From a virus (taxonomy: Duplodnaviria > Heunggongvirae > Uroviricota > Caudoviricetes), in IMG/VR virus record IMGVR_UViG_3300042256_000013, positions 1-64,000 of that record: a stretch of 64,000 nucleotides of DNA; one strand, given 5' to 3'. Both the position numbers and the translations under genes were made by a program. Below, in pieces: positions 1 to 61,934 of the stretch. How positions within the stretch are numbered: position 1 is the stretch's first letter; each line of letters starts with the position of its first letter. The notes under the pieces are model-generated. The model was given only the letters and a program-made list of their open reading frames with translations, did not search any database and was not told the DNA's origin.

Positions 1-78
1 TAAAAGTCAAGTACTTTTATTCTGCATAAAGTATTTTTCGGACTAATCTTAAAGTACTTAAATCCTTCGTGTAACGCT

Positions 79-4504: not shown

Positions 4505-4650
4505 CTAACATAATCCATTCTCAATGCAAGTACTATTACGTTTTAATTTATAATTATTTTACTGTACAAATATACAGTACTTTTCAGTACTAAAAGCAAT
4601 TGGACGCAACTTGCCACCCTATAGGGTTAGTCCATTTCGCTGGATTGAAT
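4505..4650. repeat. conserved leader repeat copy 3
   Basis: caagtactattacgttttaatttat... ttgccaccctatagggttagtccatttcgctgg. Confidence 0.65.
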
Positions 4651-9726: not shown

Positions 9727-9935
9727 TTTTGTTTCCAAATAAAAAGATTAAACGCCAGAGAAACAATGATACCAACAAACGTTGCTGAAGTCAACAACTC
9801 AATTCGTTCAAAGTACCGATAAATTGAAATATTATCACTCGGTACAAATCGCACATAATATGCTATAGTATCAAGCATCATTGATACCAGTGCTGAAATG
9901 ATAAACACAATCAATGAACACATAAACCGTTTCAT
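9723..9935 (-). CDS. small membrane protein (70 aa, 2 TM)
   Basis: Two hydrophobic helices. Confidence 0.45.
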   Translation of the reverse strand: MKRFMCSLIVFIISALVSMMLDTIAYYVRFVPSDNISIYRYFERIELLTSATFVGIIVSLAFNLFIWKQK

Positions 9936-10017
9936 TCAAATGTACTCCTGCGTTTCGATACAATCATAGTACTACATTGTTTTTATTGGTGCAAGTACTT
10001 TATTCAAAAACTTTTCC

Positions 10018-10046
10018 TTGACAAGCCATACGAGTTCCCATATAAT
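10018..10046 (+). promoter_or_regulatory. perfect consensus sigma70 promoter TTGACA-N17-TATAAT on plus strand
   Basis: cttttccTTGACAagccatacgagttcccaTATAATtac; transcript would begin ACATAGACGCGAGAAAGCGGGAACCCAAGGGGGTGGCAA, homologous to the 5' end of sRNA-B at 17983. Confidence 0.6.
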
Positions 10047-10154
10047 TACTACATAGACGCGAGAAAGCGGGAACCCAAGGGGGTGGCAAAATGTATTCAT
10101 ATGAAATAGTACTGTACATAAAAACAGTACTGGATATTTCACCAGTACTTTGCT

Positions 10155-10463
10155 TTATAGCCAGATGTATTTCGATGCACTATAATACTCTTTGTCAAGT
10201 ACTACAACGCCGCCACAATCATACATTGTTTCTTTACCCCAACACAATAATGTGTTATTGTCAAACAATGCAAGCCAGCCATATGAATGATCAACATACA
10301 CGGTGTAGTTACCATTCGTTTCAACTTCTATCCAGTTCGCGGGTTTTCCATCGGCAACCCATGCACTGATGTTTTGTTGAGAATCTGAAATGATATGATT
10401 TTCAGCTATACCTTTCAATTTCTGTAATTGTGACAGACGATGATTTAAATCAATTTGTTCCAT
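10155..10463 (-). CDS. hypothetical protein (102 aa)
   Basis: Protein-like composition; preferred over Cys/His-rich antisense plus ORF 10091-10369. Confidence 0.5.
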   Translation of the reverse strand: MEQIDLNHRLSQLQKLKGIAENHIISDSQQNISAWVADGKPANWIEVETNGNYTVYVDHSYGWLALFDNNTLLCWGKETMYDCGGVVVLDKEYYSASKYIWL

Positions 10464-11639: not shown

Positions 11640-11730
11640 AAAGAAATGCAAGTACTATTTTCATTTTAATTTATATTATTTTTTGGACGGATCTTGCCAC
11701 CCTATAGGGTTAGTCCATTTCTCTGGAGTG
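11640..11730. repeat. conserved leader repeat copy 4
   Basis: aatgcaagtactattttcattttaatttatattattttttggacggatcttgccaccctatagggttagtccatttctctgg. Confidence 0.65.
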
Positions 11731-14678: not shown

Positions 14679-14782
14679 GAATATATCCTCAATTAAAAAT
14701 AGTACTGCGTTTTCAGTACTGCCTATTATACATGTTCACTTGAATGATACAAGTACTATTACGTTTTAATTTACTTTATTTT

Positions 14783-15202: not shown

Positions 15203-15359
15203 CATCGGCAGACAAAGCATGACCCCAGGGGGTGGATAATTGCGTCCAAAATTCATTACGTTTTCTCTGGACGGATCTTGCCACCCTTGTGGGTTAGACC
15301 GTTTCGCCGGATTAATAATATAGTACCAGAAAAGGGATTGAATCGTCAACCCCTTTTTT
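15203..15359 (+). ncRNA. candidate small RNA sRNA-A (about 157 nt)
   Basis: Runs from the promoter to a plus-strand intrinsic terminator (GGGATTGAATCGTCAACCCC + T6); no ORF; contains the leader-repeat sequence in antisense orientation to early mRNA leaders; long-range stem GGGGGTGG/CCACCC. Confidence 0.5.
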
Positions 15360-15660: not shown

Positions 15661-16050
15661 TTATGCCAACTTCTTACGATAGTACTCAATCAGACGATCC
15701 AGGAGCTTGAGACGATTCGCCCCGTATACACTATCAGGATCATACATGTTACGCTGAGACGTGTAAGCGATCCGTTGATGGTTAGGATCGTCAGTAGTTT
15801 GAGACTCAACAGGATAGTAAGTATCTAACCCCATATCAATAAAAGCAGGAACCATAAACCCCATATCGATCCCTGAGATTTCACTGTTAGGCGTATGAAC
15901 GAACACATGCCAGCAGATACCAAATTGACGGGTAACATTGAACGGCTTACCTAACACGTTTGTGTAAGTCTCGCCACGGTCTAAACAATCTTTCATTTGT
16001 TCCAGTACTTCCAGAACTAATCTGTATTGCTCTAAATTAAAATCTGTCAT
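15661..16050 (-). CDS. hypothetical protein (129 aa)
   Basis: AACGAGGAGAAAGCACC-ATG. Confidence 0.55.
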   Translation of the reverse strand: MTDFNLEQYRLVLEVLEQMKDCLDRGETYTNVLGKPFNVTRQFGICWHVFVHTPNSEISGIDMGFMVPAFIDMGLDTYYPVESQTTDDPNHQRIAYTSQRNMYDPDSVYGANRLKLLDRLIEYYRKKLA

Positions 16051-16189
16051 GGTGCTTTCTCCTCGTTTCGATAAGTCCTATTATCCATATTCGCCAGGAC
16101 AATGCAAGTACTAATTTACTTTTAACGAACAAAAAGAAAAACCCGCTAAAACGCTCTGTAATGCGTTCTAACGGGTTTTATGTGTTAGC

Positions 16190-16459
16190 CTATGCCTTGA
16201 GTGATTCAGCGTTAAAAGCCCCGCTAATAGGCTTACATTGAATATTTACGGCATAGTTTACTTTCTTGTGAATGATATACATACACGAATCAAATTGATG
16301 GTTGTATGACATATCATAGATCCGCCGCTGAATAAGTACGCCATTAACTACAAAGGCAAGATACCCGCTAAACTCCGCTGTATGTCGCCCGGTTTGAGTC
16401 ATGGTTTTGGCGATCCTGGTTCCTGTATCAATCAGGTCTGAAATAGGTTTCAATTCCAT
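16190..16459 (-). CDS. hypothetical protein (89 aa)
   Basis: ORF only. Confidence 0.45.
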   Translation of the reverse strand: MELKPISDLIDTGTRIAKTMTQTGRHTAEFSGYLAFVVNGVLIQRRIYDMSYNHQFDSCMYIIHKKVNYAVNIQCKPISGAFNAESLKA

Positions 16460-16604
16460 AAGCGTTTACTCTCAATTAAAAGGTAGTTTAAAACGCTGTA
16501 GGAACGATTCTAAGCGTTTCTAACAGTACTGTAACCCGATTGCATGACAGTACTGTTAGAACTGCTTAAGGGGGCATTTAGCCCCCTTATTTTACGCCGT
16601 GGGA

Positions 16605-17303
16605 TTATTCGCCAGCGGTTTCAGTTTCTGCGTCGGTTTCCGCTTCCACTTTGTACGCTTTGATGAATTCATCGCGATCCAGCTTGCTTTCGGTCAGGAT
16701 TGCTTTGAGTTCGTTACCCATGTTACCTTTTACCGGCATTTCGTACTTCGTGCCGTTGTATTCGACGGTTACGCGGTCATAGCTTTTGACCGGAGCGGAG
16801 GCCGCTTTGATTTTTGATTTCATGCCAGCTTCCACCATCGCTTTTGCAGTCGCCAGATCCAGATTGTTATCCAGAAGAGTTTGAAGCATGGTCTTTTTCT
16901 CTTCTTCCAGGCTGGCGGCCAGGGCTTTCTGATCCGCTTCACGCTGAGCTTTCGCGGCGGTGCGTGTTGCTTCGCGGTCTGCTTTGCGTTTGGCAATGTT
17001 TTCCGCTTCGCGTTCCAGTACCGCAGGCACCAGGGCAACCGTTGCAGTAAACAGGCGAGTGATGATTTCCACGTTGTCGGATTTTTCGACCAGGTAATCA
17101 GCCAGTGATACCGCCTGAGCGTCGATGAAGGTGGTCAGGTCTGTTTCGTACTTCGCCAGCACTTCAGGTGAATGCTCAGCACCTTCAGCCAGGGTAGGCA
17201 GTACCGGAGCAACCGCCAGAACAATGCTGTTCAGGGTTACTTTAGGAGCTTTAACAGCAGTTTCAACAACGGTAGCAGCGGCGGTTTTGTTAGATTTAGA
17301 CAT
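16605..17303 (-). CDS. Ala/Lys/Glu-rich, GC-rich protein (232 aa); candidate abundant nucleic-acid-associated protein
   Basis: Strong RBS TAAGAAGGTAATACATT-ATG; GC content visibly above neighbouring DNA; about 280-nt 5' UTR from a promoter near 17590-17625. Confidence 0.6.
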   Translation of the reverse strand: MSKSNKTAAATVVETAVKAPKVTLNSIVLAVAPVLPTLAEGAEHSPEVLAKYETDLTTFIDAQAVSLADYLVEKSDNVEIITRLFTATVALVPAVLEREAENIAKRKADREATRTAAKAQREADQKALAASLEEEKKTMLQTLLDNNLDLATAKAMVEAGMKSKIKAASAPVKSYDRVTVEYNGTKYEMPVKGNMGNELKAILTESKLDRDEFIKAYKVEAETDAETETAGE

Positions 17304-17946
17304 AATGTATTACCTTCTTAAAAGTGATTGATTAATTTGTTTGTCTGATTCGCTTAGTGCGTCTCAGTGATTACATCTTACTACGTTTCGTTTCTTTCGG
17401 TCAAGGACTTTTTTCAACTTTCAGAAACTTTTTTTTCGTTTATCTCATGGCGGTAGATAGGACGCTAACAGTTAGTTAGCCTTTATAACGCTACGCTGCC
17501 TTATCGGTCATACGCTGTAACAGTACTATCTATTCTAGCCCCGTTACCGTTTCCTATCATCCGGCGAACCTTACCGCCATTCGATAACCAACATTCTACA
17601 CTTCTTAATCCAGTTTGCAAGTACTTTCGCAAATCTTTTTCGCTGTTAAGCTTAAGTCATTGTTTCAGTACTACAAACCAGGTTTTTAAAGAGCGGTGTT
17701 TCGTGTTGATGGGTGTATCTTATCAGATCGGTTAATCCGTGCAAGTACTTTCTACTCTTTTCGTTAAAATAGTTTCGTTCCTCGTTTCCCTTCCTTATAT
17801 GCATAACAGAATTCATAGGACGCGTTGTAAGCCCCTTAACAGTACTTAGATACACATTCACCAGGTACAAAGATAAACCCGCTCAAACTGCTTTATATTA
17901 CGTATAAGGAGGGGTAAAAAAGTTTCGTACTAATTGCAGAAAGTAC

Positions 17947-17975
17947 TTGCATTCAAAATCCAGTACTGGCATAAT
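17947..17975 (+). promoter_or_regulatory. sigma70-like promoter TTGCAT-N17-CATAAT (plus strand)
   Basis: agtacTTGCATtcaaaatccagtactggCATAATaacc. Confidence 0.5.
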
Positions 17976-17982
17976 AACCACA

Positions 17983-18140
17983 TAGACGCGAGAAAGCGGG
18001 AACCCCAGGGGGTGGCAAGTTGTGTCCAAAATTCATATAAAAAACTATAGACGGATCTTGCCACCCTATAGGGTTAGTCCATTTCGCTGGAGTGATTACA
18101 TAGTACTATAAATCGACCAGGTATGTCAAATTTATTTTTT
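17983..18140 (+). ncRNA. candidate small RNA sRNA-B (homolog of sRNA-A)
   Basis: Close sequence match to sRNA-A across acatagacgcgagaaagcgggaaccccagggggtggcaa...ggacggatcttgccaccctatagggttag; ends at an A/T palindrome plus T-run; 3' end uncertain. Confidence 0.4.
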
Positions 18141-18152
18141 CGAAAAAAAGTC

Positions 18153-18185
18153 CTTGCAAACCTCATCCAGTATGATAATATAGCC
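18153..18185 (+). promoter_or_regulatory. sigma70-like promoter TTGCAA-N16-TAATAT with upstream A-tract
   Basis: cgaaaaaaagtccTTGCAAacctcatccagtatgaTAATATagcc; the downstream 230 nt is ORF-free and iteron-rich. Confidence 0.5.
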
Positions 18186-18279
18186 ATGTCAACACGAAAA
18201 GACAGCAACTGATTCTGCCTGGTACTAACCAGACGCGGAAGGGGAGCTAATGGAAAAATGACAGAAAAAACCATTTAGC

Positions 18280-59949: not shown

Positions 59950-60134
59950 GGTATTTTACCTTTATGGTTTATTGAGTTTCTTTGTTACATCATTGTACTA
60001 CAATTTTATGGCATACGCAACAGGATTTTCACCTGTATCCCCAGAACCTCTCTGAGCGAACCAGTATCCTATCTAATCTATTATATCCCTTCTTTGGACA
60101 ATACGCAAGATTAAACATTAGACGATACGTATAG

Positions 60135-60207
60135 TGGAGCTATGCGGATTTGAACCGCAGACCTACTACGTGCAAGGCAGTTGCTCTACCAACTGAGCTA
60201 TAGCCCC
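60135..60207 (-). tRNA. tRNA-Ala (anticodon UGC)
   Basis: GGGGCTATAGCTCAGTTGGTAGAGC...CTTGCAC...GGTTCAAATCC cloverleaf; close to enterobacterial tRNA-Ala; CCA not encoded. Confidence 0.8.
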
Positions 60208-60289
60208 TTATCACGTCCTTACTTATACCGAGTCGGCTATCGGGCAGACGTGATACACCCCGAAGCACATTGGCTTTGTATAAGTTTGA

Positions 60290-60362
60290 TGCGGAGGGTG
60301 GATTTGAACCACCGACCTCCAGGTTATGAGCCTGGCAAGCTGACCATGCTGCTCTACTCCGC
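60290..60362 (-). tRNA. tRNA with CAU anticodon (Met or Ile-lysidine)
   Basis: GCGGAGTAGAGCAGCATGGTCAGC...CTCATAA...GGTTCAAATCCACC; CCA not encoded. Confidence 0.7.
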
Positions 60363-60495
60363 ATTTCCTATGTGATTATTATACCACAATTTTTTGAGCC
60401 GTTCCAAATTTTTTCAATCTTTTTTTTTCAATTTCAGTACTGAGCGGCTATCTCTCAGTTCATGACAACATTATACCAGAAAATTTCTGGTCGTT

Positions 60496-60840
60496 TCAAC
60501 TTTTTTCGAAGATTTTTTTCTTACAATCTTCTAACGCGTCAATCGCTTCTTCGATTGTACTCAGTAATCCATAATGGTTTTCACGAAAGAAACGTGAATT
60601 ATTCTTTGTTAAGGCATACCCTAACAATTTACCATGATTGATAACACGAGTAATTGATAATGAATATGATGCTAACGAAATTAAGTACTGGTCATATTCA
60701 GATTTTGTTACAACTTCATCAATATCAAAATCGTCATCGATTTTGTATCCATGAAGTCTATTATTTTCGTCAATACCATAAACAGCAAAACTAACATCCC
60801 AATTGATTTTCATCAACATATCAAATATTTTTTGTTTCAT
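60496..60840 (-). CDS. hypothetical protein (about 114 aa, start MKQKIF)
   Basis: Track ORF N-terminus overlaps the tRNA at 60858-60933, so an internal start was chosen. Confidence 0.45.
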   Translation of the reverse strand: MKQKIFDMLMKINWDVSFAVYGIDENNRLHGYKIDDDFDIDEVVTKSEYDQYLISLASYSLSITRVINHGKLLGYALTKNNSRFFRENHYGLLSTIEEAIDALEDCKKKIFEKS

Positions 60841-60857
60841 ATTTATAGTACCATCAA

Positions 60858-60933
60858 TGGTGGTCAATACTGGGTTCGAACCAGTGACGCCGACATTATG
60901 AGTATCGTGCTCTACCAACTGAGCTAATTGACC
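60858..60933 (-). tRNA. second tRNA with CAU anticodon (Met/Ile2), CCA encoded
   Basis: GGTCAATTAGCTCAGTTGGTAGAGC...CTCATAA...GGTTCGAACCC...ATTGACCACCA. Confidence 0.7.
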
Positions 60934-61127
60934 TTTGGATAATTCTGCACATTATGTGCAAGTGCATTGATCGATGTACGAGCGTTACGAATTGCAGTTT
61001 CAGCATTAGACTGATAATGATTAGTAACTTGCTGTACTGAGCTATCAACAATTATATACTGCTGTAGCTCGTGTTGTAAAGCCATTAATTCACTTTCAAT
61101 CTGGACTAACCGTTCAGCACTGATCAT
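60924..61127 (-). CDS. small coiled-coil protein (about 67 aa, start MISAERL)
   Basis: AGGGGAAAATC-ATG. Confidence 0.4.
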   Translation of the reverse strand: MISAERLVQIESELMALQHELQQYIIVDSSVQQVTNHYQSNAETAIRNARTSINALAHNVQNYPKVN

Positions 61128-61318
61128 GATTTTCCCCTGTTTTGATGATATTTCACAAAAGATAACCAGCATTTTGACCAGTACTCAGATTCTTTGAGAT
61201 TTTCAATTAAATCACGATGAATAGCACAATCTGGTACATTTTCAATGGTGGCATTTTCAACTTCAGACACCAGTGATTGTAACAATTCGGTAATTTCAAC
61301 CAAACGTTCTTTATTCAT
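61124..61318 (-). CDS. small protein (about 64 aa, start MNKERLVEITELL)
   Basis: GTTAGAGGTTCACATA-ATG. Confidence 0.4.
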   Translation of the reverse strand: MNKERLVEITELLQSLVSEVENATIENVPDCAIHRDLIENLKESEYWSKCWLSFVKYHQNRGKS

Positions 61319-61395
61319 TATGTGAACCTCTAACTTAAAACGTGCAATCATTATTACACGTAGCCTTGAGCGTGTCAAGGACTTTTTGGGTAAGA

Positions 61396-61472
61396 TGGTG
61401 GGCTTTCAGGGATTCGAACCCTGGACAAACCGATTAAGAGTCGGCTACTCTAACCAACTGAGTTAAAAGCCC
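61396..61472 (-). tRNA. tRNA-Lys (anticodon CUU), CCA encoded
   Basis: GGGCTTTTAACTCAGTTGGTTAGAGT...CTCTTAA...GGTTCGAATCCCTGAAAGCCCACCA. Confidence 0.7.
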
Positions 61473-61825
61473 ATATCCTTAACTGCTCTCGTCAAAATGT
61501 AATTGAAGCGACAGCAATCATAAAATGTTAAATCGAACCGTTGTTCTTTCACTATATCACGATATTCTACAATACTTAGTTTTTCTTCTCCTGAATCATC
61601 TAAGTTCAGTAGTAAACCAAAGTCAATGACACATACTAAAATATGAAGACCACCTTCATCATCAAAGTATCCAAGTCTTAGTAATGGTACTGGAGAATCT
61701 TCTGCGAAGTACATAATGTAAGTTGTACCATTATAATCTATAGTACAATCTTCATAACGTAAGAAATGATGATAGTTCATATCAAAGAACTTCGCTATAT
61801 CCTTAAGTGAGTTTAGTTCATTCAT
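61463..61825 (-). CDS. hypothetical protein (about 120 aa, start MNELNSL)
   Basis: AAGGAAATATAT-ATG; the upstream part of the track ORF is tRNA-Cys antisense. Confidence 0.45.
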   Translation of the reverse strand: MNELNSLKDIAKFFDMNYHHFLRYEDCTIDYNGTTYIMYFAEDSPVPLLRLGYFDDEGGLHILVCVIDFGLLLNLDDSGEEKLSIVEYRDIVKEQRFDLTFYDCCRFNYILTRAVKDMGF

Positions 61826-61857
61826 ATATATTTCCTTATATATACAGTTCATTTTTG

Positions 61858-61934
61858 AGCGTGGAGAGGGATTTGAACCCCCGACTTTACGGATTTGCAA
61901 TCCGTTCCAATTGGCCTGACTCTGGCATCCACGC
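61858..61934 (-). tRNA. tRNA-Cys (anticodon GCA), long D-loop
   Basis: GCGTGGA acceptor, ACGGATTGCAAATCCGT anticodon arm, GGTTCAAATCC T-arm. Confidence 0.6.

Follow-up and report, generated by a model that had tools for sequence, protein, structure and literature searches.

The 64,000-nucleotide (nt) stretch of phage DNA analysed here (positions 1 to 64,000 of IMG/VR record IMGVR_UViG_3300042256_000013; hereafter the window) carries, at 10018-10046 on the plus strand, a consensus sigma70 promoter that points at the end of a convergent gene. The site is best read, with a probability of about 0.65 from comparative sequence evidence, as the promoter of a small non-coding RNA (sRNA) gene, a discrete unit conserved in orthologous position, in a phage early region. 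A 3-kb query around the site recovers only giant Rak2-like myoviruses, the nearest being Xanthomonas phage XbC2 and Erwinia phage Kaldavass (~80% identity across half of the query). The sole part of this query that is also matched in other phages is a ~110-nt piece (window 10041-10150), which is found in Serratia phage BF, Erwinia pEa_SNUABM phages, Yersinia phage fHe-Yen9-03 (Yen9-03 below), CBB, GAP32 and RaK2/K64-1, and also in ~40 Asteriusvirus genomes. The first ~19 kb of the window consist of small genes, mostly unknown, on the minus strand, and correspond to what has been described in CBB and GAP32 as the early region near the terminal repeat (PMC5259590); the window represents the early part of the genome of a Rak2-like jumbo phage. 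The genes and features at the locus are as follows, where ORF stands for open reading frame.

9935-9723, 9738-9490 and 9481-8603 (minus): operon of two ORFs and a Band_7/SPFH gene
9966-9994 (minus): divergent promoter of this operon, predicted from sequence, with -35 TTGCAC (9994-9989), a 17-bp spacer and -10 TACTAT (9971-9966)
9995-10017: A/T-rich 23-bp segment GTACTTTATTCAAAAACTTTTCC between both -35 hexamers, UP-element-like for both promoters
10018-10046 (plus): consensus sigma70 promoter TTGACA (10018-10023)-N17-TATAAT (10041-10046), 12/12 match
10053 (plus): predicted transcription start A10053 (plausible 10051-10054), placed 7 nt past the -10 by promoter geometry
10057-10103 (plus): complete RNA module, 30.9 bits, E 7e-6, matching positions 1-48 of 48 of a covariance model built from other copies
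10058-10060 / 10067-10069: hairpin H1 of the module, CGC/GCG with loop GAGAAA, present in the minimum free energy (MFE) fold
10073-10076 / 10081-10084: hairpin H2, ACCC/GGGU with loop AAGG, present in the MFE fold
10081-10086 with 10093-10098: hairpin H3, GGGUGG with GUAUUC, a weakly supported candidate alternative
10108-10131: inverted repeat hpA, AGTACTGT-ACATAAAA-ACAGTACT, -8.7 kcal/mol, overlapping hpB
10126-10149 (element 10124-10158): inverted repeat hpB, AGTACTGG-ATATTTCA-CCAGTACT, terminator-like on both strands
10155-10463 (minus): convergent ORF of 102 amino acids, with its stop codon (10155-10157) just past hpB

The Promoter at 10018-10046

The perfect TTGACA-N17-TATAAT promoter that the initial annotation placed on the plus strand is borne out, with all 12 hexamer positions matched. 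Perfect matches number three in the window, where shuffled sequence gives 0.03, and matches with at most one mismatch number 11 against an expected 1.25; the 10018 site is the only one of these on the plus strand. The intergenic region that separates the Band_7/SPFH operon from the small ORF before it was aligned across seven syntenic phages (the window, Kaldavass, XbC2, CBB, GAP32, Yen9-03 and RaK2), which span Mimasvirus, Eneladusvirus, Alcyoneusvirus and unclassified relatives. TTGACA is invariant in all seven, the -10 reads TATAAT or TATTAT, and CATA around the predicted start is again invariant, while only 1 of the 17 spacer positions is. Invariant hexamers around a free spacer are the signature of selection on promoter function, and this comparison indicates that the 10018 promoter is real and almost certainly functional.

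The promoter stands back to back with the operon promoter at 9994-9966, the two -35 hexamers being separated by the conserved 23-bp A/T-rich segment. This segment is almost identical in Kaldavass and XbC2 and may serve as an UP element. Downstream of the operon promoter lie an AGGAG ribosome-binding site and the ATG at 9935, and the CBB equivalent of that promoter reads TTGCAT-N17-TATAAT.

A Structured RNA Module Behind Early Promoters

The sequence that follows the 10018 promoter belongs to a repeated module, of which the window holds 10 copies (7 on the minus strand and 3 on the plus strand). Copies were gathered from RaK2, 121Q, Munch, GAP32, CBB, Kaldavass, XbC2 and Yen9-03. A first covariance model, R1, was built from 12 seeds of one geometry and missed the copy at 10057; a second, rebuilt from 53 matches, finds it and matches 82 copies in 242 kb (the window and eight phage loci), with E-values that are rough owing to a shortened calibration. 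Further copies are present in metagenomic jumbo-phage contigs. The module consists of H1, a 4-nt spacer, H2 of the form (A/G)CCC-N3-4-GGGT, and then G(C/G)-N6-(G/C)TATCT or CCGTCC. H1 begins 1-6 nt past the predicted start and has a 3-5 bp stem of essentially free sequence, which closes a purine-rich loop of 6-7 nt (GCGAAA, GAGAAA, AGAACAA or AGATAA).

In the 82-copy alignment, which is a model-fitted alignment of related sequences on which all of the covariation statistics rest, each of the three inner H1 pairs has 25-33 double (compensatory) substitutions and at most three unpaired cells. Overall, 94% of H1 cells are paired, the observed values are reached in 0 of 500 shuffles, and sliding the H1 partner by 1-3 columns lowers pairing to 12-53%. 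More than 20 different H1 stems retain pairing. H2 is near-invariant (CCC/GGG) and has four compensatory cells. H3, in which GGGUGN would pair with the pyrimidine-rich segment, is a candidate alternative hairpin that is mutually exclusive with H2. Its pairing is register-specific (90% against 31-64% in slid controls) but reaches 88.6% in shuffles, so that G/U composition explains it, and only one of its pairs covaries. A switch with H3 as terminator and H2 as anti-terminator is not supported, given this composition effect and the lack of a U-tract downstream of H3 in the A-type copies of the window.

A sigma70-like match of at least 8/12 lies directly upstream in 82/82 copies, a match of at least 10/12 in 77% of copies against 1.7% of random control positions, and the distance from the end of the -10 to model position 1 has a mode of 7 nt and a range of 6-11 nt. 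By this placement, the module is the predicted 5′ end of transcripts.

The RNA family is apparently undescribed. At the gathering score, Rfam 15 matches in the window are tRNAs only; five tRNA genes (Ala-TGC, two Met-CAT, Lys-CTT and Cys-GCA) lie at 60134-61934 on the minus strand. With permissive thresholds, Rfam returned noise only, both for 9900-10300 and for a 13-kb relative locus holding seven copies, and no description of the module was found in the literature, including the RaK2, CBB, phAPEC6 and PA5oct papers. Three other readings of the consensus were rejected. A mini-ORF (ATG TAT CTA TAG/TAA) loses its ATG to ATC or TTG in many copies, including all A-type copies of the window. A long-range closing stem (TGGAC...GTCCA or ATAGA...TCTAT) is broken by the H1 covariation (CAG/CTG in Kaldavass, GCG/CGC in the window), and RNAs that begin 2-3 nt ahead of H1 lack it. 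Host-RNA or CRISPR-repeat mimicry was sought with the motif CCCAYAGGGTGC-N6-GTATCT, which gave 19 matches in 185,579 genomes, in unrelated taxa and with 0 in Enterobacterales; a rough chance estimate is ~35, and the model scores were at most 27 bits.

The Copy at 10057-10103

The initial annotation held that the transcript opens with the 5′ sequence of an sRNA family and lacks the 3′ half. The opening is confirmed by the covariance-model match at 10057-10103, whereas the supposed loss is a difference of subtype, as model positions 1-48 of 48 are matched. The 3′ part of this copy, GGGTGG-CAAAAT-GTATTC, follows the family consensus GGGTGC-N6-GTATCT, like the syntenic copies of CBB and Yen9-03, and departs only from the local A subtype of the window (...GATCCGTCC). 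The score of 30.9 bits is below that of most copies because this copy is of the B subtype (CGC-GAGAAA-GCG, GGGTGG). Its H1-H2 spacer is GGAA, and the 10 nt between the end of the -10 and the module fall inside the family range. At the syntenic locus, H1 reads CGC/GCG in the window, GACA/TGTC in Yen9-03, GCA/TGC in CBB and GAP32, and AGC/GCT in RaK2. This covariation indicates that the RNA fold is under selection here, and not only in the copies that lead into genes.

The nearest paralog is the B-type copy at 17985-18032 on the plus strand, which faces a minus-strand copy. Positions 10053-10090 and 17982-18019 are identical at 37 of 38 positions, so that the RNA of 10053-10090 would be complementary to a minus-strand RNA crossing the 18.0-kb pair.

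The 3′ Hairpins and the Convergent Gene

Downstream of the module lie hpA and hpB, two overlapping AGTACT inverted repeats. The transcript had been described as without a terminator, but hpB has an 8-9 bp stem with four G-C pairs, an 8-nt loop and a predicted stability of -11 kcal/mol, and together with its U-rich tail (10125-10158) it is 95-100% identical in 18 records. It is flanked by an A-tract at 10119-10124 (AAAAAC before the stem) and by TTGCTTTAT at 10150-10158. The plus-strand tail, UUGCUUUAU, is an interrupted tract with U at 6 of 9 positions, and it passes a terminator scan whose detector is a simple rule. In Kaldavass and XbC2 the tail after hpB is UUAUGUUUU, RaK2 has a textbook terminator at the same position (AAAAAGGGAGAC-TCATT-GTCTCCCCTTTTTCTTT), and a hairpin with a T-run stands ahead of the neighbouring ORF in 7/7 syntenic phages. 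Since the stop codon of the convergent ORF lies at 10155-10157, hpB is predicted to be a shared bidirectional terminator.

The predicted plus-strand RNA would therefore run from 10053 to ~10155 (~100 nt), with a fold of -28.5 kcal/mol (z = -3.5 against shuffles). Ending at 10150-10158 as predicted, this RNA would extend no further than the stop codon of ORF 10155-10463, and an overlap with the coding sequence requires read-through. A plus-strand ORF at 10091-10369 (92 amino acids, with its ATG within the module) was rejected as a coding product; it is antisense to the real gene and Cys/His-rich, and Kaldavass and XbC2 lack its ATG.

Conservation separates the RNA unit from its neighbours. The 26-nt core of hpB, ACAGTACTGGATATTTCACCAGTACT, occurs once in the window and is shared without change by Kaldavass, XbC2, CBB and Yen9-03, and a 3′ domain of 47-57 nt is 95-100% identical in 18 Mimasvirus/Eneladusvirus records, at one syntenic place in each. 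The unit has a DNA identity of 86% to Kaldavass over 142 nt and of 100% to CBB over 47 nt. The product of ORF 10155-10463 is 30% identical to the syntenic Kaldavass protein (E 1e-15) and has no detectable similarity to the neighbouring protein of CBB. Judged by these comparisons, the RNA unit is the best conserved non-coding locus nearby, beside a flanking protein that is at most 30% identical or unalignable. The suggestion of a decayed sRNA copy with a live promoter therefore stands for the promoter, which is conserved and predicted to be functional, and falls for the copy, which is complete, kept in orthologous position and 86-100% identical as DNA where the flanking ORF reaches at most 30% amino-acid identity.

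The AGTACT hexamer is itself abundant. It occurs 279 times in the window against ~21 expected (13-fold), in coding and non-coding sequence alike and most densely at 16001-20000, while other 6-bp palindromes are at most 1.8-fold over expectation. It is equally dense in all related phage loci (~6 per kb), and it recurs at fixed places near the RNA units: in the spacer just 5′ of the -10, just 5′ of the -35, at ~+50 and at ~+70. The palindromes CCTAGG, CCGCGG, CCCGGG, CCATGG, CAGCTG and AGCGCT are absent from the window (3-8 of each expected), a pattern that fits the avoidance of restriction sites. The 5′ arm of the conserved hairpin (10126-10135) is the 10-mer AGTACTGGAT, which also forms ~12-13 perfect tandem copies, one helical turn apart, at 19058-19177. 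This tandem array lies at the border of the minus-strand early cluster and a set of ~8 paralogous plus-strand genes (19429-26052), each of which starts ATGTTACCATTTCC and corresponds to paralogs that the Kaldavass and 121Q annotations call RCC1-like "regulator of chromosome condensation / DNA condensation" genes.

Orientation and Pairing of the Copies

The 82 copies were classed by their orientation relative to the local gene cluster, as given by the annotations of relatives. Among 52 sense-oriented copies, 34 have neither terminator nor partner within 110 nt, 16 face a partner and 2 have a terminator. The 34 continue into a second promoter and a gene. Examples of this second promoter, P2, are found at 1043-1080, 4522-4559, 11644-11681 and 14745-14782, with a conserved A/T-rich UP-like element (AAATTAAAAYGWAAT) and with AGTACTTGC at the -35, such that each gene cassette has tandem promoters with the module between them. 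The 30 antisense-oriented copies comprise 16 that face a sense partner, 10 that have a terminator (a hairpin and T-run beginning 18-23 nt past the module) and 4 with neither. Thus, 10/14 unpaired antisense copies are terminated as opposed to 2/36 unpaired sense copies (Fisher p = 5e-6, with terminators called by the simple rule named above), and read-through of antisense copies has apparently been selected against. This argues against an RNA meant to enter ORF 10155-10463, and the antisense transcription of that ORF proposed by the initial annotation would arise only by read-through.

Face-to-face pairs form the third arrangement. The modules of a pair are separated by exactly 11 nt in 12 of 16 pairs (8 phages), with starts ~107 bp apart, and in the two pairs of the window the facing copies form a long inverted repeat (GGGTGGCAAG / CTTGCCACCC). 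In some phages, Fur-box-like palindromes (14-16/19 matches to GATAATGATAATCATTATC) lie directly after modules or midway between paired modules. No Fur box was found in the window, and the palindromes of RaK2, Munch and Yen9-03 suggest, from sequence, iron/Fur gating in those phages. The pairs of the window and the palindromes are as follows.

15207-15312: face-to-face module pair, own promoter for each copy, 11 nt between modules
17985-18092: face-to-face module pair with the same layout, formed by the plus-strand B-type copy 17985-18032 and the minus-strand copy 18044-18092
RaK2 (locus L005) 21885, 22725, 22951 and 23237: Fur-box-like palindromes
Munch (locus L007) 5678, 12071 and 12330: Fur-box-like palindromes
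Yen9-03 (locus L011) 344: Fur-box-like palindrome

The 18.0-kb pair lies in a segment of ~2 kb (17300-19400) without a convincing ORF, together with many AGTACT sites and the tandem repeat, and 121Q has a similar 2-kb gene desert around a B-type copy (locus L006, 11647-13614). The segment may mark the boundary of a terminal repeat or resemble an origin.

Comparison with Known Systems

The nearest described system is the PeSL, a composite terminator/promoter cassette of T4-type phages (Arbiol et al., 2010, PMC2839356; Comeau et al., 2014, PMC4122927). Both systems place repeated near-consensus sigma70 early promoters in a hyperplastic region of small ORFans in a T4-related myovirus, and the A-type copies of the window have a terminator stem-loop of the A3G3...C3T3-4 type over the -35. 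This stem-loop, GGGTTGAC-TTCG-GTTAGCCC followed by a T-run, contains the -35 of the next promoter, with examples at these positions.

1133-1171: PeSL-like stem-loop
4653-4691: PeSL-like stem-loop
5382-5420: PeSL-like stem-loop
11736-11774: PeSL-like stem-loop
12923-12961: PeSL-like stem-loop

Unlike in PeSLs, for which neither feature has been described, a transcribed 48-nt module with a covarying hairpin stands behind every promoter here, and about one-third of the copies point against the genes and are terminated or face-to-face. The 10018 copy also has no stem-loop at or upstream of its -35 (10018-10023).

Short constitutive terminated phage transcripts are known from lambda, namely the PR′-tR′ "6S" RNA (StxS) and OOP. 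Like the unit predicted here, they are RNAs of ~80-200 nt that start at a strong host-polymerase promoter, end at an intrinsic terminator and contain no ORF, and OOP is likewise convergent to a gene. However, OOP extends into the 3′ coding part of cII, while the RNA predicted here ends at its neighbour's stop codon, belongs to a family of ~10 copies, and has no sequence or Rfam relation to the lambda RNAs. Small hairpins in the first ~50-70 nt of early transcripts are also known as lambda nut boxB and HK022 put. The module resembles them in position and in the short stem and purine-rich, boxB-like loop of H1, but no boxA-like conserved sequence was found, orphan copies have nothing to antiterminate, and antitermination by the module is unsupported. 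The convergent-promoter and antisense switches of coliphage 186 (pR-pL) and pCF10 (prgQ-prgX) have their likeness in the module pairs, whose strong face-to-face promoters, with starts ~107 bp apart, predict transcriptional interference and complementary RNAs. This likeness applies to the pairs at 15.2 and 18.0 kb, while the 10.05-kb copy faces a gene end and a terminator. PeSLs, the lambda RNAs and the convergent switches are not relatives of the module in sequence or structure.

Compared with Hfq-type sRNAs, the 10018 unit has a promoter and a terminator-like end, and its sole extended complementarity within the window is the 37/38 match at 17982-18019. The distantly Rak2-related jumbo phage PA5oct, which relies on host RNA polymerase, likewise has non-coding transcripts at its early end (PMC7318152). 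Its ncRNA001 and ncRNA002 are highly expressed, lie in the terminal repeat and are similar in sequence to MIJ3 only; at 236-451 nt, they differ from the present unit (PMC7318152). Taken together, the unit is of the phage early small RNA or leader kind, and its RNA family is apparently new.

Weighing the Explanations

The ~100-nt RNA is most likely not a decayed copy, and antisense action on ORF 10155-10463 is most likely not its main role; a discrete, conserved sRNA unit is quite probable. Several observations weigh against this. The plus-strand tail UUGCUUUAU is a mediocre U-tract behind a stem with only four G-C pairs, and some read-through into the antisense strand of ORF 10155-10463 is likely. 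The better U-run belongs to the minus-strand version of hpB, and conservation of this hairpin might chiefly serve the convergent gene or preserve an AGTACT site in the DNA; the 13-fold genome-wide excess of AGTACT bears on the latter possibility. Several H1 variants are common to different genera, so that independent compensatory events are fewer than the cell counts. A within-window search for trans targets gave only the 18.0-kb paralog and matches to the AGTACT repeat, with no target or partner identified, and the start site, 3′ end and abundance of the plus-strand RNA are predictions from sequence.

Some of these points would suit a cis-antisense RNA that reads through the hairpins and pairs or interferes with the convergent ORF, as OOP does with cII. 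The promoter points at the ORF, the plus-strand U-tract is imperfect, the convergent RNAs would in any case be complementary over ~40 nt of the shared terminator (10118-10157), and convergent transcription does occur within the family, as the face-to-face pairs at other loci show. It is nevertheless quite unlikely: all seven orthologs have a hairpin and T-run ahead of the ORF, that of RaK2 being canonical, terminators are enriched after antisense-oriented copies, and the RNA unit is conserved between genera without the neighbouring ORF, although a dedicated regulator should be kept together with its target. It is also conceivable, though unlikely, that the promoter itself is what matters and the RNA is a by-product. 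Placed back to back with the operon promoter and head-on to minus-strand transcription coming in, it could then act as an insulator or backstop by collision, share an UP element, couple both promoters through supercoiling, or capture RNA polymerase early. The 23 bp between the -35s with their conserved A/T-rich segment, the occurrence, in several phages, of orphan copies at the 3′ end of an upstream cassette, and the high density of near-consensus promoters would all fit, but neither the compensatory upkeep of the module hairpin at this locus nor the invariant 3′ hairpin loop ATATTTCA would be explained.

The module could alternatively be a DNA-level repeat, that is, a mobile regulatory cassette and PeSL-like recombination substrate for gene shuffling that has no RNA function. 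The ~10 copies per genome in a hyperplastic early region rich in ORFans, the PeSL layout of the A-type copies with their -35-containing terminator stem-loop (PMC2839356, PMC4122927), and the subtypes shared or exchanged between loci and genera are in keeping with such a cassette. It would not predict compensatory stem changes around a conserved loop or a fixed place at the transcript 5′ end, and the 10018 copy has no stem-loop at its -35; this explanation is accordingly judged decidedly unlikely. Cis antitermination or attenuation of the put/nut type, through an H2/H3 switch or polymerase modification, is very improbable. Points in its favour are the promoter-proximal place of the element, its two hairpins, the likeness of H1 to the boxB of lambda nut in its short stem and purine-rich, GNRA-like loop, the mutual exclusion of H2 and H3 with the register-specific H3 pairing given above, and the abundance of stem-loops in the early region. 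On the other side stand the orphan copies without same-strand genes downstream, an H3 that is almost without covariation and, in the A-type copies of the window, without a following U-tract, and the absence of an Rfam match of any kind. Finally, a decayed paralog with an intact promoter, or a chance promoter match, has negligible probability. The former draws on the 3′ part that differs from the seven A-type copies of the window, but the model match is full-length and orthologs are present in at least 18 phage records, and the latter has an expectation of 0.03 per window.

Proposed Function and Implications

If the site is the promoter of a discrete sRNA gene, host E-sigma70 would start at about A10053 immediately after DNA entry, and the first ~50 nt would fold into the module common to ~10 early transcription units per genome, with H1 as a free stem under a conserved purine-rich loop, the GC hairpin H2, and the conserved GGGUG(G/C)-N6-pyrimidine segment. 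Transcription would stop, with an efficiency that is likewise predicted, at the locus-specific AGTACT inverted repeat and U-rich tail (10126-10158), and the same repeat would terminate the convergent ORF 10155-10463. The product, an RNA of ~100 nt, would overlap with the mRNA next to it in the shared terminator alone. The conserved loop, the invariant CCC...GGGUG and the free stem suggest recognition by a protein or polymerase and protection of the 5′ end. A best guess is that the module is a recognition and 5′-end-protecting handle for a phage or host factor, carried as the leader of early mRNAs, and that the terminated orphan copy supplies the module in trans as a competitor or decoy. Alternatively, the orphan could act in trans by antisense pairing with minus-strand RNAs that run across the B-type member of the 18.0-kb pair. 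The trans-acting part is held much less firmly than the discrete unit itself and is doubtful. It is also plausible that the strong convergent promoter shields the operon promoter behind it from read-through, and these roles are not exclusive.

Rak2-like jumbo phages (RaK2, 121Q/PBECO4, GAP32, CBB, BF and others) are under development for therapy and biocontrol, while ~80% of their genes, including the whole early region, have no assigned function, and no transcriptome for them was found in the literature. With a structured RNA at the start of the transcripts predicted from ~10 strong early promoters per genome, in at least four genera whose neighbouring proteins are not conserved, there is a testable handle on the first minutes of infection, including transcript stability, the insulation of cassettes, antisense or interference control and, in some members, possibly Fur gating. 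Tentatively, and with the odds somewhat against it, the module may be a new class of structured RNA that marks the 5′ ends of host-polymerase early transcripts in all Rak2-like jumbo phages and forms an RNA-based layer of early control. Such a layer would have three wirings: a sense mRNA leader without a terminator, a terminated ~100-nt orphan, and a face-to-face pair whose modules are set exactly 11 nt apart or, in some phages, flank a Fur-box-like palindrome. The module would act in each as a factor-binding handle, with orphans as trans competitors or antisense RNAs and pairs as interference switches. Ultimately, for the annotation of these genomes, wrong-way "orphan" consensus promoters would be small-RNA genes as opposed to noise, and the covariance model finds such genes.

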